A DNA stretch of 64,000 bases, taken from an uncultured Gemmatimonadales bacterium (GTDB lineage Bacteria; Gemmatimonadota; Gemmatimonadetes; Gemmatimonadales; GWC2-71-9). A program made the position numbers and the translations under genes. Under the pieces are notes generated by a model. That model saw only the letters and a program-made list of their open reading frames with translations, was not told the DNA's origin and searched no databases. Positions 2,524 to 61,463 of this stretch are shown in pieces (within the stretch, counting starts at the first letter, position 1; every line of letters begins with the position of its first letter). The stretch lies in assembly GCA_963846435.1 (NCBI GenBank), contig CAWJVX010000001.1, positions 6,992 through 70,991 on the forward strand, given 5' to 3'.

Positions 2524-3139
2524 CGGCGGAGAACGATGATGCTCGCAGGTCGGTATGAGCTTCCCTTGTCTACGGCCTCCGCCGGCGTACGCGATGCCGA
2601 TGTCGACGGATACGAGCTGGCGCTCACCCTGTATCCGACGCGGTCGAGTCCGCTCGCCATCGACCCCGGCCTCGCGCTGGCCAATGCAGGCAAGGCGCAG
2701 GTCCAGATGTAACGGTAAACCCGACATTCGATGCCGCTCCGTCGGCAAGCGTCGTTGACCGTCTGTTGACCGGCGGCGACCGGTCAGCACACTTAACGTC
2801 CGCTCGCGGTGGCATGGCCGGATTCTGTTGAAAAACGGAAATTTCAGCTAGACCAATTTCCTCTCAGATGCGGGATGTCATCGAAAGACGAACCCCAATA
2901 CATCGCATCAGGAGCCGCCCACAGGTCCTACGTCGCACCGTCTACGTTCTTGGTGTCCCCCCAGCCTGATACGGGTTCCGCATCGTATAGACGGCTGGAC
3001 TCAGCGTCCGCAAAAAAAGAAAGTTCCCAAGATAATCGCCGGAGGAGCAGTCGTTGCCGGAGGCGACCATGACGATTCGGAGTTGGCCCGTTCGAGCCCG
3101 TTGGTTGCCGATTCCATATGCAAAAACAGTCGTTCGCAG

Positions 3140-4123
3140 CGCACCACTCTATTACCCGCGTCGCCGCGCAATGATCTCCATTGGCATCATCAGTCCAGTA
3201 GCTTCGCGGTATTCAGGTTTACCGCCAGTTCGAATGTCATAGGCTGCTCATCGGCAGGTCACCTGGTTTCGCTCCTTTAAGAATGCGGTCGACGTAGTAG
3301 GCAGTGCGGCGGGTCATGGCCACGCGGTCGGTGCCATATAACAGCGCGCCCTCGTCGGTCCACTCCCGAGCCCCTGCGACGAGTGGCCAGCGGCGGGCCA
3401 GTGCCAGTGTCGCGATGCGCCGCCGTTCGTTGAATAACAGCGGACCTGACATTGCAATGAGCGCTTGCACGTTCCGCTTAGCAAGACGCATCACGGCGGC
3501 ATCGATCTCCTCAGATGTCGCTGCCCCCTCGATATGGCCTTCAATTCAGTGGTGGGCGACCGAGCGTCGTGCCGAATCCATCAACGCAGCACGAATGACT
3601 GGCGGCAGGCTGGCATCGCCCAGAAACCCGATCCGCCGCAACTTCGGGACGGCATCCAGAAGACTTCAGATGTTTTGCGTTGATCTTCTCCCCATCGACA
3701 CTGGTGAGCCCGGTGATCATGCCACCTGGCCGAGCGAGGTTCGACGCAGCCTCCTGCCTGCCAGCGGATCGCCCGCAGCCACGATAATGGGCGTCGTTGG
3801 AGCGGCGTTCGCCGCCGCGGCGACCGCTGGAACTGTAGCCGCGACGATGACCGCTGGCTTTTTCGCCGCCAGCTCCCCGGCAAGGCTGGGCAGCCCATTC
3901 GCCATCCGTCCGCCCAGCGTTCCTCGATCACGAATTGGGAGCCGTGCTTTCGACCGAGTGCCCGAATCTCTTCTGTGAACGCGGCGAAGATCTTCTCGAA
4001 CGAACGACGTGAACCGGCATGCAGCCACCCGATGGCACTCCACTGGCTGCTTCGACGACCCGCCCGTGCAAGCGCCCACCATGACCCCGCGAGAATCAAA
4101 GCTCGTCTCTTCAGCTCAATCAT
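3140..4123 (-). pseudogene. ABC transporter substrate-binding protein (Bradyrhizobium-type periplasmic binding protein family), frameshifted
   Basis: Pieces lie in at least 3 minus-strand frames: IGWLHAGS..AAFTEEIRALG..FVIEERWADG, LAGELAAKKPAVIVAATVPAVAAAANAAPTTPIIVAAGDPLA, TRRTAYYVDRILKGAKPGDLP, then PMTFELAVNLNTAKLLD. Confidence 0.6.
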
Positions 4124-4846
4124 TAGTGTTGGGCAGCCTCAGCAAGGGATTCCGCCAATTCTCAACAAGAGCGCTTGATAAGTATGTGCGTGGGCGTACA
4201 TAATAAGCGCACAGGCAGCGCTGCGTAGCATGGCTCCCCAGCATATGCACGCTAGTTCCACCCAAGAACGGTTTCGTTCAGGATGGCGATGATGAAATGC
4301 TTTTCTGATGCATGCGCATGGTGATTTACGGCGGCATCGCTGCCGCGTTCGTCGCGATCACGGTGTATCGAATCTCGGCGAGTTCCAACGCGGCCTGTGC
4401 CGCGCATTGAATCTCGCGCCGTAATCGATCGGCTTCCTGGTGATCGACTGCGCAAGCACCTTGAGCTGTCCCGCGAACGACACCCCACAGGGCCCCCCAG
4501 ATTAGGAACCAGGGGGCAAATGCAAAGGGCATCAAAGCTACCCCAGATCGAAGCATGCTCCTCGGTCAGCTCAAACAGCATTGCCATGGCCGAAAGAAGG
4601 CAGACCGCAAGACCGCCTACGCCCAGCTTCGGCTCGACAGCCTGCCCCGCCGATGCTGCGGATCTGCTGGCAGCGCTCCTGGGCGGACCGTGTTGGTGCC
4701 CCTGACGCAGATGTTGGTGAAACTGGTAGGCAGCGGGCGAATTGCTTATCCTTGCTGCACAGGCCCTGTTGTAGAGGGGCAAGCGTTCGCGCCCACGGAG
4801 AGGACCTCATGGATTCAATTCGGTCCCTGACCCCAGTTCGCCAGGC

Positions 4847-8205: not shown

Positions 8206-9234
8206 ATGGCCAACATGAGAGCGATGGTCCTGACCGGGCCGAACGAGTTGACACTCGACGAAGTCGCCAGGCCGGCAGCCGGTCGCGGCGATGTTCTGGT
8301 CAGGGTGACGCACAGCGGCATCTGCGGCACCGACTACAAGATCTTCAACGGCTCCATCCCGGTGCGTTACCCGCGCATCATGGGGCACGAGATGGCGGGA
8401 GAAGTCGTCGACGCCGGCGACAGCAGCCTGCGCGTCGGCGAGCGCGTCATCGTCGATCCGGAGCTCTATTGCGGCAACTGCTTCCATTGCCGCATCGGCC
8501 AGGCGCACCTGTGTCCGAACGGCCAACTGCTCGGGCGCGATGCCAATGGCGGGTTTGCCGAGTACCTGGCGGCGCCGAAAAGCCAGGTGTTCAGGCTGCC
8601 CGACAGCATCGGCCGGAACGCGGCGCCGATCATTCAGGTGCTGACCACCTGCCTTCACGCCCAGCGCCAGGTGGATATCTTCCCCGGCGAGTACGTGGTG
8701 GTCCAGGGGTTGGGGGTGACCGGTCAACTGCACGTGCAGCTCGCCAAGGCCCGCGGAGCCACCGTGATCGGCGTCACCCGCAGCGCCGACAAACGGGCGC
8801 TGGCCGAAACGCTGGGCGCCGACCTCACCATTCCCGGCGACGAACACGCCGTGAATGCGGTGCGCGAAGCCACCGAAGGGCGCGGCGCGGACATGGTGAT
8901 CGAAACCACCGGCTTCGTGCCGCAGCTGGCGTCCGGCATCAACATGACCCGCTCCGGCGGCCGCGTGCTGATGTTCGGCATCATCACGGCCAAGGAAGGC
9001 GCGCTGCCGTTCTACGACCTTTACTTCAAGGAAATCTCGCTCATCAACGCGCGGGTCGCCAAGAGCGAGGATTACCCGGGCGCGATCGGCCTGGTCGAGC
9101 GCGGCCTGGTGCGGCTCGAGCCGCTGATCAGCGACGTCATGCCTCTCGGGGAGCTGAAGGCGGCAATCGGGATGCTTGGTTCCGATGGCGGCGCCCAGCG
9201 CATGAAGATTGTTCTCGAACATGGAGTGAACTAA
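8206..9234 (+). CDS. Zinc-dependent medium-chain alcohol/polyol dehydrogenase
   Basis: 342-aa ORF. Motifs GICGTDYKIF, GHEMAGEVV, DPELYCGNCFHCRIGQAHLC (structural Zn), VQGLGVTGQL (Rossmann). Confidence 0.85.
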   Translation: MANMRAMVLTGPNELTLDEVARPAAGRGDVLVRVTHSGICGTDYKIFNGSIPVRYPRIMGHEMAGEVVDAGDSSLRVGERVIVDPELYCGNCFHCRIGQAHLCPNGQLLGRDANGGFAEYLAAPKSQVFRLPDSIGRNAAPIIQVLTTCLHAQRQVDIFPGEYVVVQGLGVTGQLHVQLAKARGATVIGVTRSADKRALAETLGADLTIPGDEHAVNAVREATEGRGADMVIETTGFVPQLASGINMTRSGGRVLMFGIITAKEGALPFYDLYFKEISLINARVAKSEDYPGAIGLVERGLVRLEPLISDVMPLGELKAAIGMLGSDGGAQRMKIVLEHGVN

Positions 9235-9302
9235 TTTGCGATTTGCGATTTGTGATTTGCGATTGGGTGAAATCACAAATCAAAGATCACAAATCACAAA
9301 TG
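9233..9302. repeat. Inverted tandem-heptamer hairpin element (ATTTGCG/ATTTGTG x4 versus AATCACA-type x4)
   Basis: Left arm 9233-9264, spacer gggtga, right arm 9271-9302. Most mismatches are C-A on the plus strand, i.e. G-U on the minus-strand RNA. It fills the gap from the ADH stop codon (9232-9234) to the SD/ATG of the next gene (9313). Confidence 0.85.
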
Positions 9303-9312
9303 AGGTAGAGAC

Positions 9313-9942: not shown

Positions 9943-9946
9943 ATCT

Positions 9947-10047
9947 GTAGGGGGCAGGGGTTAGGGGGCAAGGGGGCAGGGCTGTCCTAGGGATCAGGCC
10001 TGATTCCTTAGACAGCCCTGCCCCCAGCCCCCTGCCCCCTCGCCCCC
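9947..10047. repeat. Long near-perfect palindrome built from GGGGCAG-like units (G-rich arm / C-rich arm)
   Basis: gtagggggcaggggttagggggcaagggggcagggctgtcctagggatcagg pairs with cctgattccttagacagccctgcccccagccccctgccccctcgccccc. Arms are about 50 nt, centred near 9998/9999. It fills the gap between stop 9940-9942 and the livH ATG at 10051. Confidence 0.9.
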
Positions 10048-10050
10048 TTC

Positions 10051-10905
10051 ATGACCTACGTCATCGTCCAGACGCTGAATGGGTTGTTTTCCGCAGCCCT
10101 CCTGTTCCTGATCGCGAGTGGTCTGACCCTCGCCTTCGGCGTTATGAAGATCGTCAACATCGCGCATGGGTCGTTCTACATGCTCGGTGTGTACGTCGCC
10201 TACAGCGTGATCCTGCGGACGCAGAGCCTCCTGCTCGGCGCCGTCGTCGCCATGCTCGTCGTCGGCGCCGTGGGCTTCGTCATGCAGCGCTTCTTCCTGC
10301 GCCGGTTTGGAAACGACCCGCTCGCCCAGATGATGATGACGATGGGGTTTGCGTTGCTGTTCAGAGACGCGGCGTTGATGATCTGGGGTGGAGATCCATT
10401 CACACTGCAGTACCCGGGACCGCTGCGTGGATCGCTGGAAGCCGGCGATGTCGTGTTCCCGTTTTACCGGTTGTTCGTGATCGTCGTGGCCGCGCTGGTC
10501 GGCGTGGCGCTCTGGGCGGTCAACGAGAAGACGCTGATTGGCGCGCGCCTGCGCGCCACCGTGGACGACCCGGAAATGGCGTCAGCCACCGGGATCAACG
10601 TGGCGCGGCTGTCGGGCCTGGTGTTCGCGGCGGGGGCCGCGCTTGCCGCGTTCGGGGGCGTGATGGGCGGCCCCATCCTCGGCGGCTACGCGGGCATCGA
10701 TTTCGACCTGCTCCCGCTGGCGTTCGTCGTGGTGATCATCGGCGGCATGGGCAGCTTGAAGGGCGCACTGGTCGGCAGCATCGTCGTCGGCATGATCGAC
10801 AACTTCGGCAAGGCGCTCGCCCCTGAGCTGTCGTACTTCACGCTGTTCGCGCCGATGGTGGTCGTGCTGGCGGTCAAGCCGACCGGGTTGTATGGACGTG
10901 CGTAG
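10051..10905 (+). CDS. livH: Branched-chain amino acid ABC transporter permease (LivH family)
   Basis: 284-aa polytopic ORF. Typical LivH start (QTLNGLFSAALLFLIASGLTLAFGVMKIVNIAHG) and GGMGSLKGALVGS near the C-terminus. Confidence 0.85.
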   Translation: MTYVIVQTLNGLFSAALLFLIASGLTLAFGVMKIVNIAHGSFYMLGVYVAYSVILRTQSLLLGAVVAMLVVGAVGFVMQRFFLRRFGNDPLAQMMMTMGFALLFRDAALMIWGGDPFTLQYPGPLRGSLEAGDVVFPFYRLFVIVVAALVGVALWAVNEKTLIGARLRATVDDPEMASATGINVARLSGLVFAAGAALAAFGGVMGGPILGGYAGIDFDLLPLAFVVVIIGGMGSLKGALVGSIVVGMIDNFGKALAPELSYFTLFAPMVVVLAVKPTGLYGRA

Positions 10906-22298: not shown

Positions 22299-22370
<72 letters not shown>

Positions 22371-29351: not shown

Positions 29352-29734
29352 CCACCACCCGACCAGTCCAGGAGTTTTACTCGATCGGCGAGGTCTGTGC
29401 GCTGACCGACCTGAAGCCGCACGTCCTGCGCTACTGGGAAAGCCAGTTCCGCTTCCTGAACCCGGCGAAGAACCGTTCGGGCAACCGGGTGTACAAGGGA
29501 CGCGAGGTGGAGCTGATCATGCTGGTGAAGCATCTGCTTTATACCGAGAAGTTCACCATCGACGGCGCCCGCCAGCGGATCGACCACTACCGCCGCACCG
29601 GCGAGCTCCGGGTCTCGGCCAGACGCGCATTCGAGACGGAGATGGCCCAGGAGGTCCGCACCACGCTGGAGGAGGTGGTGGGGATTCTTGATGGTAAGCC
29701 GGTCCCGCAGAAAAGCGTGAACAGTGAACCGTGA
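29342..29734 (+). CDS. MerR-family HTH transcriptional regulator
   Basis: FYSIGEVCALTDLKPHVLRYWESQFRFLNPAKNRSGNRVYKGREVE. The ATG at 29348 (ATGA overlap with the gpsA stop) is an alternative start. The last 6 codons and the stop lie inside the repeat arm 29716-29748. Confidence 0.8.
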   Translation: MEMTTTRPVQEFYSIGEVCALTDLKPHVLRYWESQFRFLNPAKNRSGNRVYKGREVELIMLVKHLLYTEKFTIDGARQRIDHYRRTGELRVSARRAFETEMAQEVRTTLEEVVGILDGKPVPQKSVNSEP

Positions 29735-29784
29735 ACCGTGAACGGTCGGTTGAACCCGCTTACCGTTCACCGTTTACCGTTCAT
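29716..29784. repeat. Inverted tandem-heptamer hairpin element (GTGAACN x4 versus CCGTTNA x4)
   Basis: gtgaacagtgaaccgtgaaccgtgaacggtcgg / ccgcttaccgttcaccgtttaccgttcat, about 21/29 pairs. It spans the merR stop (29732-34) and ends 17 nt before the surE ATG. Confidence 0.8.
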
Positions 29785-32841: not shown

Positions 32842-32915
32842 GCCCCCGTAGCTCAGATGGATAGAGCAGCAGTTTCCTAAACTGTTGGCCGCGTGTTCGA
32901 GTCACGCCGGGGGCA
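32842..32915 (+). tRNA. tRNA-Arg (anticodon CCT)
   Basis: Acceptor GCCCCCG/CGGGGGC, D arm GCTC-AGATGGATA-GAGC, anticodon arm GCAGT-TTCCTAA-ACTGT, T arm GCGTG-TTCGAGT-CACGC, discriminator A. Confidence 0.88.
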
Positions 32916-45917: not shown

Positions 45918-47483
45918 ACGCGTTTCCGCATTCGCGCCGGAAGGATGCCCAGCTGGTCGCGGTACTTGGCGACCGTGCGGCGGGCGATCTGAATCCCCTG
46001 CTCCTGAAAGAGGTGGACGATCTGCTGGTCGGTGAGCGGCTTGGCGCTGTTTTCCTCGCTCACCATCTTTTCCAGCTTGGCCCGGATCGAGCGGGCGCTC
46101 GCATCTTCACCTGAGGCAGTGGAGAGCGCACTGGAGAAGAAGAACTTGAGCGGGAAGCACGCCCCGTGGGGTCTGCACGTACTTCTCATTGGTTACCCGG
46201 CTCACCGTGGACTCGTGCATGTTGATGACCTCGGCCACTTCCCGCAGGGTGAGCGGCTTGAGGTACTCGATGCCCTTCTCGAAGAAGTCGCGCTGCCGGT
46301 CGACGATGAAATTCATGACCTTCAGCATGGTCTGGCGCCGCTGCTCGATGGCCTGAATCATCCAGTTGGCGCTGTTCATCTTGGAGGCGATGAACTCGCG
46401 ATTCTCCGGGGTCATCTTTTTCTTGTCCCGGGCGATCTCCTGATAGGAGCGGCTGAGCCGAAGCCGCGGCATGCCGGTGTCGTTGAGGAACACCTGGTAG
46501 CGGGTCCCGATCTTTTCCACGATCAAATCGGGAATGATGTACCCATCGCTCTGCTGGGAGTACTTGAGCCCGGGCTTGGGGTCGAGTCGGGAAAGCTGGT
46601 CGGCGGCGGCCTGCACCGCTGCCGGCTCCACCCCGAAGCGCTTGGCCAGGTCGTTCCAGCGATGGGCGATGAGGTCGGGGAAAGTCTCCGAGACCAGACG
46701 GTAGGTGAGAGAGCTGGTATCGGCCAGCTCCACCAGCTGGATCAGCAGGCACTCCCGGAGGTCCCGCGCCCCGATGCCGGATGGATCGAGCCGCTGGATG
46801 ACGGCGAGCATCTCCTCGGCCTCTGTCATCGTGTAGAAGGGCGGGGATGACGGAGAGGACGGAGAAGGTGGAGAAGACGGAGAAGACGCGGAGGAAGGAG
46901 ACGATGCCGGGCTGGAGGCCAAGGCGGCAGCGGGCATGTCCAGGTCCTCAACCTCTCCATCCTCTCCGTCGTCTCCGGCCCTGCTGACGTGCCCCGCCAT
47001 CAACAGGTTGACCGAGTTGAGAATCTCCTCCAGCGACGCGGCCAGGTAGCCTTCCTCGTTGACGTTGCCCAGGAACTCCTCGGCCAGCAGGAGCTGGCGT
47101 GGGGTCAACACCAGCATCTGGAGCTGCTCTCGGAGGTGGTCAATCAGGTTGCGGGACTCCACCGTGACCGGTTCGGTGTACTCCAGCTGCTCGTACTGCT
47201 CCCGGGTGCCGCCCACTTCGAAGCCGTTGAGCAGGATCTCCTCCCAGTCGACCTCATCCTGCTTGTCTTTCTGCTCCTTCTCCTTCTCGGCGGTGGCGGT
47301 CGGTTCCGGGGCTTCCTCTTCCGGCTCCAGCAGCTCGAGGAAGGGGTTGGCCAGCAGCTCCTGCTTGAGATGCTGCTGCAAGTCCATCATGGGCATGTAC
47401 AGCATGTCCATGGCCTGGTACAGCCGCGGATTGACCCGCAGCTCCTGCCGCATACTGGTGTGCTGCGACAGTCCGGTTCTCAT
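45914..47483 (-). CDS. rpoN: RNA polymerase sigma-54 factor, apparent frameshift near 46157
   Basis: N-terminal region I ([33 protein letters not shown]), core-binding region, HTH ([20 protein letters not shown]) and RpoN box ARRTVAKYR in the downstream ORF 45914-46189. The join is [16 protein letters not shown]. Confidence 0.92.
46845..46980. repeat. In-frame palindromic 9-nt tandem-repeat insertion inside rpoN region II
   Basis: Arms are GACGGAGAR units (46845-46905) and CTCTCCRTC-type units (46944-46980), about 22/27 pairs in the best register. On the coding strand they encode [11 protein letters not shown] and [26 protein letters not shown]. Confidence 0.8.
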
Positions 47484-50091: not shown

Positions 50092-50703
50092 TCATTGCTG
50101 CCCCGGCAGCAACAGGCCCTCGCCGGACACGCCCCGGGGGCGGTCGGTCACCACGTTCTTGAAGTCAGGGTCGGACCGGAAGCTGTTGCCCTCCAGGTGT
50201 TCGGCACCCCGGTCGAAGGAGAACTGCTTGTCGGTCATGATCGTGTTGGTGGCATTGTCGTAGCGCAGCGACTCGGTCGTGAGCCGGCGCCCGTCAGGTG
50301 ATACCACCCGCACGTTTCCCGTGGCCTCCATCGAACCGTCCTGCCAGCGATACGTCCCCCGGTGAGCGGTCAGCGTGGACCCCTCCGCACCCTTGAGGTC
50401 GAAGAACACCACCTTGACGTTGTGCAGCTCGGTGATCTGGGTCGGCTCGTAGTAAAACGCGGTATCGGCTTCCACCCGGCTGCGCCTGACCCCATCATTG
50501 GTCACGTAGTGGGAGAACCCCTCGAGCACCTGGTCGGCGCTGTCTGCCGCCTGCACCGTCGACGTGGGCCGGACCCCGGGGTCCTCACAGGAGAGGACGG
50601 ACAGGATGAAGAGGAACGCGGGAACGAGGGAACGAGGAAACGCGCGCCACGCTGCCCTCCCGGATTCCCTTCCCTCGCTCCGTCCTGCCCTCGTTCCCCT
50701 CAT
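50092..50703 (-). CDS. lptC: LptC-like LPS export protein (lipobox-type N-terminus)
   Basis: Position between kdsD and lptA. N-terminal anchor FLFILSVLSC. LptC-like strands (FSHYVTNDGVRRSRVEADTAFYYE.., TLTAHRGTYRWQDGSMEATGNVRVV). Confidence 0.7.
   Translation of the reverse strand: MRGTRAGRSEGRESGRAAWRAFPRSLVPAFLFILSVLSCEDPGVRPTSTVQAADSADQVLEGFSHYVTNDGVRRSRVEADTAFYYEPTQITELHNVKVVFFDLKGAEGSTLTAHRGTYRWQDGSMEATGNVRVVSPDGRRLTTESLRYDNATNTIMTDKQFSFDRGAEHLEGNSFRSDPDFKNVVTDRPRGVSGEGLLLPGQQ
50591..50701. repeat. Inverted tandem-octamer element (GGAACGAG-type versus CCCTCGTT-type) at the kdsD/lptC junction
   Basis: gaggaacgcgggaacgagggaacgaggaaacgcg .. ccctcccggattcccttccctcgctccgtcctgccctcgttcccctc. 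It encodes the first ~37 codons of the lptC ORF if ATG 50703 is used. Confidence 0.7.
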
Positions 50704-59393: not shown

Positions 59394-59503
59394 GGCTATT
59401 GGCTATGGGCTATGGGCTATGGGCGATCGGAAAAGAAACCCTCCGGTTCGGAGGGTCTCAGAGTTCGGAGCAGCCAATAGCCAGTAGCCAATGGCCAACA
59501 GCC
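59394..59503. repeat. Inverted tandem-heptamer hairpin element (GGCTATG x5 versus CCAATAG-type x4) with inner 8-bp stem-loop
   Basis: ggctattggctatgggctatgggctatgggcgatcgg .. accctccg-gtt-cggagggt .. gcagccaatagccagtagccaatggccaacagcc, about 25/34 outer pairs. It fills the gap between convergent stops at 59390 and 59507. Confidence 0.85.
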
Positions 59504-59506
59504 TGT

Positions 59507-59989
59507 TCAGCTCGGGCCGGTGCCGCCCATGGGCTTGGCATCCGGCAGCAGGCGGCGGACTTCCCGGTCCAGCGCGGACAGGGACTCGTTCACACTCCGC
59601 TTGGCCTCGTCCCAGTTACGGTCGGTGGCGGCAGCGAGGCCGTCCAGATCGCGGCTTACCGCTTTGCGGGCCGCGCGGACGTTCACGATGGCGCTATCCC
59701 GGGCGTGGTCGACGCCCCGCTTGGTATCGCGCTCGATCCCGGCGATTTGCTCGTCGAGCTTCTTAAGCTGCAGGTCGAGGTCGCGCCGAAAATCGTTCCG
59801 CTGCTCATAGCTGTAATCCCGGGCCTCCCGCGCCTCCTCCCGAACCTCTTCGGCGCCCTCCCGAGTCTCCGCTCGCACGTCCGCGGCGACTGAATCCACC
59901 TTGCTCGCCGTCTCCTGACGATCGCGCGGACTGCAAGCAAATGCAGTTGCCATCAGCACCGCCGCAGCGGCACAGGTGATCTGCCTCAT
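59507..59989 (-). CDS. Lipoprotein of unknown function, charged helical repeats
   Basis: Lipobox AAAAVLMATAFAC and a good SD (aggagg) 6 nt upstream. E/R/D-rich helical sequence. Confidence 0.6.
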   Translation of the reverse strand: MRQITCAAAAVLMATAFACSPRDRQETASKVDSVAADVRAETREGAEEVREEAREARDYSYEQRNDFRRDLDLQLKKLDEQIAGIERDTKRGVDHARDSAIVNVRAARKAVSRDLDGLAAATDRNWDEAKRSVNESLSALDREVRRLLPDAKPMGGTGPS

Positions 59990-60135
59990 GTCGTTCCTCC
60001 TAGTCCGTCCGTTTGGTATGGCGTTGGAGTACGGAACAGGATAACCGTGGAGGGGGGATTACAGAGGTGACCTAGCTCACCGGAGGTGGTCCAGCGCGAG
60101 CCTTGGGACGTAATAGGGTGCCGCTGACACGTTTA

Positions 60136-60460
60136 CCACTAAGGGACAAAGACCACAAAGGGCCACTAAGGGTAAGAGAAGTCACCACCCATTAAGGACT
60201 CGCCTGAAGCCTTCTCTCAAGGAATTGACGTTGAAGTTGATGAGAAGACCCAGCCAAAGGTCCTGAAGTCGGAGATATGTTAAAAGTTGTGCGGTATGAA
60301 TGGAAATTAGTCTGTCGACCGCTTTTACTTCAACGATGACACTTTTTTCAACCAGGCCCCATCAGACGGTGGACCTCTATTGCAGAACCAATGATCTCGT
60401 GCGACAACACCAGTGCAGACGCCTTTGTGCCCTTCGTAGTCTTCGTTCCTTCGTGGTGAA
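60136..60460. mobile_element. Hairpin-flanked element carrying a GxxExxY-family gene remnant
   Basis: Left arm ccactaagggacaaagaccacaaagggccactaaggg (60136-60177). Right arm gcctttgtgcccttcgtagtcttcgttccttcgtggtg (60421-60460) is its approximate reverse complement. The core is about 240 bp and of visibly lower GC. Confidence 0.75.
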
Positions 60461-60464
60461 CCAT
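60182..60464 (-). pseudogene. GxxExxY-family (PD-(D/E)xK-like, PDDEXK_3) protein pseudogene: frameshift plus internal deletion
   Basis: The ATG at 60464 gives MVHHEGTKTTKGTKASALVLSHEIIGSAIEVHRLMGPG*. A second frame gives GLVEKSVIVEVKAVDRLISIHTAQLLTYLRLQDLWLGLLINFNVNSLREGFRRVLNGW*. Both ends match the family pattern, but the central ~45-50 residues including the ExxY part are missing. Confidence 0.8.
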
Positions 60465-60545
60465 CAGCCAAATCTTCGGGACAACGACGAGCCTCACCAA
60501 CCGCCCGGATGCAAGCCCAACCCAACTAGCGCAGATCTTGCCGTC

Positions 60546-61463
60546 TCAGCCGCGGGGGTGGAATTGCTTGTGTACGGAGCGGAGGTATTCCCGGTCCACG
60601 TGGGTGTAGATCTGGGTGGTGGAGAGGTCGGCGTGTCCCAGCATCTCCTGCACCGCGCGGAGATCGGCTCCGCCCTCGAGCAGGTGAGTGGCGAAGGTGT
60701 GTCTCAATGTATGAGGGGTAACCCGCTTGGTTATTCCGGCGCGCTGGGTGGCGCGGCGAACCACACCCCACGCGCCCACCCGGGAAAGCGGCTCGCCTCG
60801 CGCATTGAGCAGGACCCTGTTCTTGCTCTTCCCGCGGTCGAGGACCGGCCGCATCTGGTGCAGGTACACCGAGGCGGCACCAATTACGCTCCGCCCGATG
60901 GGCACCAGCCGCTCCTTGCCGCCCTTACCGAAAATCCGCACCAGATTTTCCGTCAGGAGGAGATCGGTCAGGCCGAGGCCACAGAGCTCGGAGACTCGGA
61001 GCCCGGCTCCGTAGGCCAGCTCCAGAAGGGCGCGGTCTCGCCAGGCGAGCGGTTGCTCCAGATTGGGCGCGGCGAGCAGCCTCTCCACCTCCTGGACGCT
61101 CAACGTGTCGGGTAGCACCCGCCCCCGCCGAGGGCTCTCCAGCCGGTCGCTGGGATCTTCGCTGACTCGCCCTTCCCCGATCAGAAATCCGAAATAGGTC
61201 CGGATGGCCGAAACGCCGCGACGAATCGACGCCGGGCTCAGGCCGAGATCCTTCAGCAGATAGACGAAGTCGCGCAGCAGAGAGCGGGTAAGACGACCGG
61301 GGTCGCGCGCACCCCGGGCCACGGCGAATTCCCCCAGGCGCCGGAGGTCCCGCATATACGACTCAACGGTGTTGGCGCTGTGCCCCGCTTCGAGGGCCAG
61401 ATAATCACGGAAGCTTTCGAGCCAGAAATCCCGGTCGATCTGAGCCTTCAGCTCTCGAATCAC
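60546..61463 (-). CDS. xerD: Site-specific tyrosine recombinase XerD/XerC
   Basis: SANTVESYMRDLRRL, RDRALLELAYGAGLRVSEL, FGKGGKERLVP, HTLRHTFATHLLEGGADLRAVQEMLGHADLSTTQIYTHV. Confidence 0.9.
   Translation of the reverse strand: MIRELKAQIDRDFWLESFRDYLALEAGHSANTVESYMRDLRRLGEFAVARGARDPGRLTRSLLRDFVYLLKDLGLSPASIRRGVSAIRTYFGFLIGEGRVSEDPSDRLESPRRGRVLPDTLSVQEVERLLAAPNLEQPLAWRDRALLELAYGAGLRVSELCGLGLTDLLLTENLVRIFGKGGKERLVPIGRSVIGAASVYLHQMRPVLDRGKSKNRVLLNARGEPLSRVGAWGVVRRATQRAGITKRVTPHTLRHTFATHLLEGGADLRAVQEMLGHADLSTTQIYTHVDREYLRSVHKQFHPRG

Follow-up and report, generated by a model that had tools for sequence, protein, structure and literature searches.

Among the systems described so far, the closest to the locus considered here is that formed by repetitive extragenic palindromic (REP) sequences, including the REP doublets termed REPINs, together with the genes for REP-associated tyrosine transposases (RAYTs) (PMC2817692, PMC3116915, PMC3333891). 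The current work concerns a stretch of 64,000 nucleotides from an uncultured Gemmatimonadales bacterium (“the window” hereafter denotes this whole stretch), in which a pseudogene of the GxxExxY / PDDEXK_3 nuclease family is located between inverted repeat arms at positions 60131-60464 of the minus strand. As in the REP/RAYT system, a small enzyme gene is positioned between inverted copies of a repeat, gene-less intergenic hairpins are far commoner than gene-bearing ones (here, among the matches listed by the arm-side scan described below), and the encoded enzyme presumably recognises the hairpin as its substrate. The two systems differ in that the GxxExxY enzyme is a PD-(D/E)xK nuclease of approximately 125 amino acids (aa), whereas RAYT is an HUH/Y1 (IS200/IS605-like) transposase, and in that each GxxExxY arm consists of three to four tandem units of 8-10 nt with a TCACC head, whereas a REP is a single imperfect palindrome of 20-40 nt with a GTAG or CGTC head (for this head classification see PMC3733652). 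Furthermore, GxxExxY arms are often translated as the N- or C-terminus of the protein and carry a motif common to many phyla, whereas REPs are species-specific. REP/RAYT would thus be the closest analogue in logic, with differences in enzyme class, repeat anatomy and phyletic breadth.

Short tandemly repeated repetitive (STRR) hairpins of filamentous cyanobacteria (PMC2670836) are likewise intergenic and have both arms composed of short tandem units, which is true of the GxxExxY locus and of seven other hairpins in the window. STRR sequences, described in cyanobacteria, have 7-bp units and are neither associated with a gene nor united by a common terminus, whereas the window is of Gemmatimonadales origin and its GxxExxY arms display CRCRRAG units of approximately 9 nt (8-10) and a TCACC terminus, with a nuclease gene as their cargo. 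Miniature inverted-repeat transposable elements (MITEs) and terminal inverted repeat (TIR) transposons are comparable in their terminal inverted repeats, conserved outer terminus and subterminal motifs, and in the fact that short gene-less copies are far commoner (here, again among the matches listed); however, the GxxExxY unit is without a DDE transposase, and no target-site duplication was seen by eye. Unlike MITEs, gene-less copies of the GxxExxY type have loops unrelated to the gene and are not internal-deletion derivatives, and copies within a genome are not near-identical.

Homing endonuclease genes include representatives of the PD-(D/E)xK type, such as I-Ssp6803I. Shared with these are a small nuclease open reading frame (ORF) central in a symmetric site, allele histories discordant with the host background, a divergence bubble in the flanks that resembles a co-conversion tract, signs of invasion and decay, and a low G+C content (GC); by contrast, the GxxExxY gene is located in neither an intron nor an intein, its “target” would be a multi-site repeat hairpin, it has no known homing family membership, and cleavage by its product is presumed. 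The stems of 23S rRNA intervening sequences (IVSs) are processed by RNase III, and a fold-back element (fbi) of hok mRNA silences translation; in both cases the two RNA ends pair in a long stem around a small ORF, as in the GxxExxY unit, where the stem could be processed or could silence translation in a similar way. Unlike an IVS, the unit lies outside rRNA (no Rfam match to rRNA was obtained in the window or in 20 element loci), and IVS ORFs belong to a different protein family; unlike for hok, no antisense RNA or toxin-antitoxin features were found for the unit. An intrastrand-triplex repeat (PMC4666352) was also considered and set aside, as it represents a different motif.

The best reading of our results is a nuclease-hairpin pair analogous to RAYT/REP, in which the enzyme is of the PD-(D/E)xK type and the mechanism is putative. 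That the window locus is a dead copy of such a two-part unit, consisting of a palindromic repeat-array hairpin and a small nuclease gene in its loop, is the combined explanation that we hold with moderate confidence.

The relic and its arms

The features of the locus, all on the minus strand, are as follows.

60465-60545: 80-nt spacer that separates the element from the stop codon of xerD (60546), by eye alike in genomes with either element orientation
60462-60464: ATG start codon, bordering the 5' arm on its outer side and inside the closing stem of the predicted RNA fold
60422-60461: 5' arm, in gene sense GTTCACCAC-GAAGGAAC-GAAGACTAC-GAAGGGCAC-AAAGG; its terminus and unit motif recur at homologous loci
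60351-60461: N-terminal coding fragment (..SALVLSHEIIGSAIEVHRLMGPG), corresponding to TIGR04256 positions 2-20 and aligned to the intact homologue L232
60348-60354: deletion junction (137 nt, GGT microhomology), seen as one 137-column gap against L232
60185-60347: C-terminal coding fragment (SVIVEVKAV..NFNVNSLREGFRRVLNGW), a PF13366 match in a different frame, with E-x-K kept
60131-60172: 3' arm, on the plus strand GTTTACCAC-TAAGGGAC-AAAGACCAC-AAAGGGCCAC-TAAGGG, complement of the 5' arm, compared with the arms of L232 and L067 (L and a number designate the loci compared in this work)

Translated from the minus-strand ATG, the first coding piece reads MVHHEGTKTTKGTKASALVLSHEIIGSAIEVHRLMGPG and is terminated by a premature stop codon at 60348-60350, while the second piece, in another frame, reads ..SVIVEVKAVDRLISIHTAQLLTYLRLQDLWLGLLINFNVNSLREGFRRVLNGW up to a stop codon at 60182-60184. 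An initial annotation of the window, made by a model, had proposed a decayed gene of the GxxExxY/PDDEXK_3 family, and this was borne out by a hidden Markov model (HMM) search of both pieces. The C-terminal piece matched Pfam PDDEXK_3 (PF13366) over positions 66-117 of 117 (E=3.5e-16, 60.1 bits, cutoff 22) and NCBIfam TIGR04256 “GxxExxY” (2e-16, 60.4 bits, cutoff 35), and when the two pieces were joined the TIGR04256 match rose to 71.4 bits (7.7e-20). The N-terminal piece alone, aligned with TIGR04256 positions 2-20, is suggestive at most (E=0.11). For comparison, an intact syntenic allele obtained 139.7 bits in the family profile search.

The initial annotation had also described a frameshift followed by a deletion. 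Decay of the gene is evident, but it does not require two events, since a global alignment of the window with the intact L232 displays a single contiguous gap of 137 columns with GGT microhomology at its bounds. This deletion spans profile positions ~21-64, so that E22 and Y25 of the GxxExxY motif are lost along with the catalytic Asp (D62), and it also put what follows out of frame. The motif (G19, E22 and Y25 in alignment A1), which is intact in L232, L068 and L001, is therefore gone from the window copy, whose N-terminal piece ends in ..GPG, and of the catalytic set E22, D62 and E72-x-K74 only VEVK remains, in the shifted frame. Among 21 diverse aligned cores the invariant residues are G17, G19, E22, Y25, D62, E72, K74, Y90, N103, F104 and R115. 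With the motif and the catalytic Asp lost and the frame shifted, the window locus is thus a pseudogene of the family rather than a functional member: a non-functional relic with no protein function now. Its core has a GC of 0.45-0.49, as against 0.656 for the window, in line with the low GC noted at the outset.

The outer terminus of the 5' arm, TTCACCAC, directly adjoins the start codon, and the arm codes for residues 2-14 (VHHEGTKTTKGTK); together with the ATG, codons 1 to 13-19 of the pseudogene are within this arm. The earlier claim that start codon and N-terminus are encoded by the arm is therefore correct for this locus, and it also applies to over 100 related protein clusters as well as to other phyla, where different reading frames are used (see below). 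The 3' arm is decaying relative to L232 and L067, with G-to-T changes and CTAAGG instead of CGAAGG. The arms extend over 60131-60163(-60172) and 60422(29)-60461, corresponding to 33 nt with a complementarity of 82%. That the gene is housed in a tandem-repeat hairpin was confirmed by an inverted-repeat score of 36, the best in 60001-60600, which exceeds that of all 150 random 600-nt windows from the same sequence (mean 19.6, maximum 28) as well as the maximum of 23 in shuffled sequence. Two details of the original description need amendment: the stop codon is indeed close to the left arm, but its distance of 5 nt becomes 2-9 nt depending on where the arm is taken to end, and the repeat units are tandem, yet they are degenerate 8-10-mers instead of strict 9-mers.

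For the present purposes, a hairpin-borne GxxExxY unit is defined by inverted arms with the outer sequence T(T/C)ACC(A/G)C and three to four CRCRRAG-like units at a spacing of 8-10 nt, adjoining the ORF. The arms of the window, GTTCACCAC-GAAGG.. and ..CCTTAGTGGTAAAC, with their degenerate units, fit this definition. The start context ATG-nTTCACCAC is common to L067, L232, L068, L001 and L227. When the intact L232 unit and the window relic were folded as RNA, pairing of the 5' arm with the 3' arm was predicted to form the closing stem in the minimum free energy (MFE) as well as the centroid structure, with z-scores of -3.3 and -3.4 and with the ATG within the stem.

Arm design and translated arms across phyla

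In a first sample, strong inverted arms were found around the ORF in 15-17 of 35 intact-looking loci. A second sample was chosen by patterns in the core peptide only ([VLI][IL]VEVK[AS]VD and HRxLGPGLLE) and spans Chlamydiota, Verrucomicrobiota, Planctomycetota, Chloroflexota, Proteobacteria, Cyanobacteria, Bacteroidota, Acidobacteriota and archaea. Against a cross-locus null, which is conservative because the arms of different loci share a motif, 43 of these 74 loci exceeded the 95th percentile and 28 the 99th, and arms were present in 42 of 64 loci of a third sample, obtained from metagenomes. Overall, 58-68% of family members, in many phyla, are flanked by inverted arrays of the motif TCACC-(CRCRRAG-N1-4)3-4, and the design recurs in hundreds of independent assemblies. 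The expectation that intact homologues would always be flanked by inverted arrays thus holds as a usual, though not a universal, feature.

The sequence C[AG]CN[AG]AG occurs at least twice on the upstream sense strand in 57 of the 74 loci of the second sample, on the downstream antisense strand in 62 and on both in 50; its density is 20 times that of gene bodies, and its spacing peaks at 9 nt (99 cases), followed by 8 nt (54) and 10 nt (28). The outer terminus of the arm across loci is T-(C/T)-A-C-C-(A/G)-C-R-R-A-G, and the hairpin has the general form (from 5' to 3') T(T/C)ACC, three to four repeats of C-R-C-R-R-A-G plus 1-4 nt, the loop, and the complement ending in GGTGA(A). At mirrored positions 11-32, arms of the same locus are complementary at a level of 0.65-0.71, as compared to 0.40-0.42 with the arm of another locus and a maximum of 0.48 in 200 permutations. 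Since arms match those of their own locus far better than those of others, they co-evolve within each locus while the common motif is kept. Gene start and stop are within 0-45 nt of the arms. In the Armatimonadetes chromosome OY970325 (L143, 3387-3410), and thus in an unrelated phylum, a CGCCAAG-type array directly follows the xerD stop codon.

More than 100 protein clusters of Gemmatimonadales (at least 67% identity to the L068 protein) start with M-(L/F/I)-(H/Q/Y)-HEGTKxTKxTK. The initial annotation had stated that many database GxxExxY proteins begin with HEG/TKD-type low-complexity N-termini, and this was correct, M-x-HHEGTKxTKxTK being present in these >100 clusters. The lengths of such proteins step by three residues (135, 138 and 141 aa), indicating that repeat units are gained or lost in frame. 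In other lineages the arm DNA is read in other frames, as FTAENAESAEM, FTTEDTEDTE, NHRGTEAQR or PQRHRDTE, and the start codon is found at the outer or the inner edge of the arm, depending on the lineage. The proposal that the gene always starts within an arm is true of many loci, but in approximately half of the other lineages (judged by eye, uncounted) the start codon sits at the arm's inner end. In many cases the tail of the protein is encoded by the 3' arm, for example PDSPRSLRAQR. As the Pfam domain covers residues 20-135 only, with the arm-encoded peptide outside it and read in varying frames, the constraint acts on the nucleic acid and not on the peptide. Proteins of the ANME-1 / Chloroflexi-type subfamily (P0121-P0240) have alternative annotated starts, MFTAENAESAEM... 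or M[TI]KKERLN..., and many of them end in PDSPRSLRAQR-type tails, which are encoded by the 3' arm. The annotation of starts and stops in the family is probably inconsistent.

The GxxExxY gene specifies a protein whose invariant catalytic residues are E22, D62, E72 and K74, and the family is very large, two protein searches each returning at least 8000 scored candidates, and extends over bacteria and archaea. Of the structural features predicted, only the order of secondary-structure elements fits a PD-(D/E)xK core. A profile search of PDB sequences gave no match, so that no solved structure is detectable by sequence, and Foldseek comparison of the predicted structure with the PDB gave no match below E=0.18. 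With regard to a possible role in defence, PADLOC yielded a weak similarity to the Cas4-like active site only (E 5e-4 to 5e-3), a PHROGs search with the family gave no match, and across Pfam, NCBIfam and PADLOC there was PDDEXK_3 and the weak Cas4-like match only, with no HUH/Y1 transposase. In the open literature the family name and accessions are mentioned in no more than 3-4 papers, and always in passing, the arm sequences were not found in any paper, and no description of a nuclease-hairpin unit was found in the searchable literature.

Gene-less hairpins, allele turnover and competing explanations

An arm-side scan with the pattern TCACCRCRRAG-N1-4-CRCRRAG-N1-4-CRCRRAG, which needs three strict units, was applied to species-representative genomes and returned at least 120 stretches. 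Among the matches listed, there were 165 arm hits, of which 102 had a partner arm within 750 nt; the loops between paired arms measured 20-150 nt in 90 cases and 300-420 nt in none, and the only loops above 300 nt (490-507 nt, in L392 and L399) each contained a GxxExxY gene, no other long-loop cargo being seen. In 99 of the 102 paired arms listed, no GxxExxY gene was present within 700 nt, and the analogy with RAYT and REPs, which had been drawn before these searches, holds as a pattern of association. The hairpin is hence the abundant entity and the gene a rare cargo, the only one seen among the matches listed, while the hairpin accompanies most genes. Solo hairpins lie in long stop-free spans less often than random segments do (43% versus 84%), which fits an intergenic location. 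An Rfam search assigned no family to any hairpin.

In contigs classed as viral in IMG/VR, the arm motif was found in at least 120 stretches (L427-L546), some with several hairpins per few kb (L487, L450 and L435). Nested arrangements, with a second hairpin of the TCACC/TTCAAC type inside the loop, were observed in L361 (6023-6231), L364 (3950-4135), L367 (3556-3800) and L390 (804-1040), which suggests that loops are sites of insertion or duplication.

The element of the window has as neighbours a xerD-type recombinase gene (60546-61463, minus strand) and a 160-aa lipoprotein-like gene (lip; 59507-59989, minus strand). The nearest public relatives are uncultured Gemmatimonadales/Gemmatimonadaceae, whose XerD is 89-95% identical to that of the window, and at their xerD-lip site an intact allele is present in L232, L235 and L237, and one with a 1-nt deletion in L067. 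The element is on the xerD strand in the window (WIN), L067, L232, L235, L237, L231 and L283, and on the opposite strand in L227, L228, L068 and L001. Between L232 and L227, identity is 97.9% in xerD (1382 nt), 98.2% further downstream (621 nt) and 87.5% in lip, whereas the elements (L232 1501-1969 and L227, reverse complement, 1453-1914) are inverted and 70.6% identical. A simple in-situ inversion as the sole cause of the orientation polymorphism was dropped, the flanks being 98% and the elements approximately 70% identical in this pair. Element alleles cluster by orientation, with 81-91% identity within cluster A, 70-78% within cluster B and 62-69% between them, and a third allele in L283 (~700-1165) has 51-61% nucleotide identity to the others. 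By their lip genes, L227 and L283 fall with the A-type hosts, in discordance with the element alleles. This discordance and the element-centred bubble of divergence fit an allele replacement by recombination, in a homing-like manner with co-conversion, and equally an ancient inversion polymorphism, but they do not fit a recent flip. In L283 an ATG adjoins the arm at both outer ends (GCAAATGCTTCACCAC ... GTGGTACAGCATTGGC), meaning that the inverted repeat runs through the start codon on either side.

Base composition and decay are in keeping with a selfish or mobile history: in 62 of 70 loci the gene has a lower GC than its flanks (mean gap 7.8 points, 12 in high-GC hosts; 0.51-0.55 versus 0.66 in Gemmatimonadales loci), and decayed copies are common, as in the window, L067, L392 and several Terriglobia copies. 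Multicopy families were found in two metagenome-assembled genomes (MAGs). The Terriglobia MAG CAVVFX (L040-L064) contains at least 11 copies of a 577-740-bp unit, 95-98% identical and several with deletions or frameshifts, in which the two arms form an “empty” hairpin upstream of the gene and which adjoin insertion sequence (IS)-like ORF fragments. The Waddliaceae MAG CAVVNU (L188-L191) contains four identical gene-in-hairpin copies within a larger repeat that reaches well past both arms.

A far-reaching reading, which we consider less likely than not, is that GxxExxY genes and TCACC-(CRCRRAG)n hairpins represent undescribed, prokaryote-wide selfish DNA, in which a minimal PD-(D/E)xK nuclease, in place of an HUH, DDE or serine/tyrosine enzyme, may recognise the hairpin or cruciform, drive homing or replacement and spread gene-less copies, with the arms possibly serving also as an mRNA clamp. 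In the combined explanation given above, the nuclease would be the cognate enzyme of the hairpin; it would bind to the array of CRCRRAG units and act on hairpin or cruciform DNA at the TCACC terminus or in the loop. A break made by the nuclease, if repaired by copying, could allow the gene-bearing unit to spread to, or replace the sequence at, hairpin sites in a homing-like fashion; alternatively, the nuclease may mobilise gene-less hairpins in trans, as is thought for RAYT with REPs. In the mRNA, the arms would pair the 5' end to the 3' end and bury the start codon, thereby keeping the expression of a potentially toxic nuclease low. The window copy would be a degenerate end stage of the cycle of spread and replacement. 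Action of the nuclease on the hairpin, the resulting spread or replacement and the clamp on expression are all steps that we infer; what is observed comprises the anatomy, a statistical association from the gene side as well as the arm side, arm co-variation, a foreign-like composition, decay and a turnover of alleles at one site.

Several observations weigh against the combined explanation. The fraction of hairpins that bear a gene is 2-3% among the matches listed, a rough value obtained with the strict three-unit pattern. No gene remnants were seen in the loops of solo hairpins, which are unrelated to the gene and to each other, so that solo hairpins are not simply deletion derivatives. Detectable arms are lacking in 32-42% of family members, both arms are upstream of the gene in approximately 20% of loci, and the arm mismatches (67 of the G-U type, 48 of the A-C type) display no clear lean towards RNA or DNA. 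No target-site duplications were seen, although this was judged by eye on a handful of 16-nt outer flanks printed for 42 loci and not by a systematic scan. As noted, an inversion polymorphism of long standing could also account for the bubble of divergence at xerD-lip. The multicopy families were rejected as proof of transposition: both cases examined ride on larger repeats or IS-like DNA, and autonomous spread is therefore not proven. Finally, the AlphaFold2 models (from 42 and 59 sequences) have a predicted local distance difference test (pLDDT) score of 66.6 and 63.9 with a disordered C-terminal third, and are too poor for fold comparison.

It is possible, if unlikely, that the arms are purely a cis-regulatory RNA device, which pairs the mRNA ends, occludes the start codon and Shine-Dalgarno (SD)-like units, and provides RNase III processing, stabilisation or insulation, with the gene as an ordinary or domesticated host nuclease, the solo hairpins as independent RNA elements and nothing mobile. 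Such a device would accord with the position of the ATG in the closing stem predicted by both MFE and centroid folds (z about -3.3), with a purine-rich 5' arm containing GGAG/AAGG/AGAGG-like units and a start codon at either arm edge, with the co-variation of arms within a locus and with sense-strand mismatches that are slightly more often G-U-compatible (67) than of the A-C type (48); being a palindrome that is the same on both strands, it would work in either orientation, and an effect on transcript stability has been proposed for STRR hairpins (PMC2670836). However, structure alone leaves the conservation of TCACC and CRCRRAG from archaea to Bacteroidota unexplained while loops and peptide vary, and it likewise fails to account for the low GC, the common occurrence of pseudogenes, the replacement of alleles in backgrounds that are 98% identical and the nested hairpins. 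Moreover, in the approximately 20% of loci with the partner arm upstream, the stem does not enclose the ORF.

Somewhat less probable still is a scenario in which the hairpins are an independent REP- or STRR-like repeat, beneficial to the host or spread by another enzyme, and GxxExxY is an unrelated selfish or passenger gene that resides in permissive or hot-spot loops, its nuclease having no action on the arms. The roughly 97% of hairpins without a gene among the matches listed, and their loops free of gene remnants, agree with this scenario, as do the nested hairpins, which show that loops take insertions, and the copy-number bursts examined, which ride on larger repeats or IS-like DNA; REPs, moreover, are known targets of insertion sequences (PMC1525189). 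Yet an opportunistic passenger would not be expected to be the only long-loop cargo among the matches listed, nor to have exactly the TCACC/CRCRRAG arm family in 58-68% of genes from dozens of phyla, and starts and stops within 0-45 nt of arms that are often translated represent a tighter fit than such a passenger calls for.

A programmed invertible cassette, in which recombination of the inverted arms would reverse the gene with respect to transcription arriving from xerD and so act as an on/off switch, is regarded as improbable. Both orientations do occur at one xerD-lip site in close relatives, the arms read alike on the xerD strand in both orientations with outer flanks that are similar by eye, and L283 has an ATG at both outer ends. 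The two orientations are, however, approximately 30% different in backgrounds that are ~98% identical, and alleles cluster by orientation, which implies an ancient flip or replaced alleles rather than frequent switching; in addition, the only adjacent recombinase is the housekeeping-type xerD, and the ~10 nt upstream of the ATG (TTGGCnnATG) go with the gene and not with the site. Chance resemblance or an assembly artefact, that is a random ORF fragment between fortuitous low-complexity repeats, has the short length of the fragment and nothing else in its favour and can be dismissed in view of HMM scores far over the cutoffs, intact syntenic alleles in L232, L235 and L237, an arm score above that of all 150 random windows and a design seen in hundreds of independent assemblies.

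For the window itself the message is modest, the locus being a relic that exposes a cross-phylum unit and many matching empty hairpins. For the little-described GxxExxY/PDDEXK_3 family, a defined DNA/RNA motif now provides a concrete candidate substrate, and the unusual low-complexity ends, both N- and C-terminal, of thousands of database proteins are explained as translated repeat arms; annotators may mis-call the starts of such proteins. A widespread family of intergenic hairpins is also defined, which has no Rfam match and was not found in the literature searched. If the nuclease acts on the hairpin, the pair would constitute a second prokaryotic enzyme-repeat partnership beside RAYT/REP, possibly with a new mobilisation chemistry, and would be a source of structure- or sequence-specific nucleases.

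Other hairpins and neighbouring features of the window

Seven further tandem-repeat hairpins are present in the window.

9231-9304: tandem-repeat hairpin, unit ATTTGCG
9946-10051: tandem-repeat hairpin, unit GGGGGCA
29716-29783: tandem-repeat hairpin, unit CGTGAAC
46839-46980: tandem-repeat hairpin, 9-nt unit GACGGAGAA
49963-50090: tandem-repeat hairpin, unit GCGGGGAG
50613-50698: tandem-repeat hairpin, unit GGAACGAG
59394-59503: tandem-repeat hairpin, unit GGCTATG

The initial annotation had linked the GxxExxY locus to these hairpins as one architecture; this link was not upheld, as the seven have different units (7-8 nt, in one case 9 nt) and have neither a TCACC terminus nor CRCRRAG units. 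No other hairpin of the GxxExxY type was found within the 64-kb window. Several of the seven fill the entire spacer between ORFs, from a stop codon to the next start. The density of tandem-repeat hairpins amounts to 6-8 per 64 kb in the window, whereas xerD-anchored loci of 80 other genomes contained ~3 in a total of 420 kb; their abundance therefore looks lineage-specific.

The hairpin at 59394-59503 (GGCTATG/GCTATTG) sits between the lip gene and a convergent upstream gene. It is kept at the orthologous site in L068 (4049-4201) and L001 (reverse complement, ~3060-3190), with 4-9 unit copies and unrelated loops, and in L067 (~4600-4640) one arm has been lost. Heptamer hairpins of this kind are old, vertically inherited and dynamic.

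In the spacer at 60465-60545, neither a sigma-70-like promoter nor a terminator was found between xerD and the element, making transcriptional read-through from xerD possible. The only Rfam matches in the window are two tRNA genes, at 22299-22370 and 32842-32915. A 16-nt palindrome, GGTGAGCTAGCTCACC, is located ~60 nt upstream of the lip gene (window ~60066-60085, GGTGACCTAGCTCACC) and is kept at the same position in L067, L232, L227 and L228, even beside differing elements; it looks like an operator.

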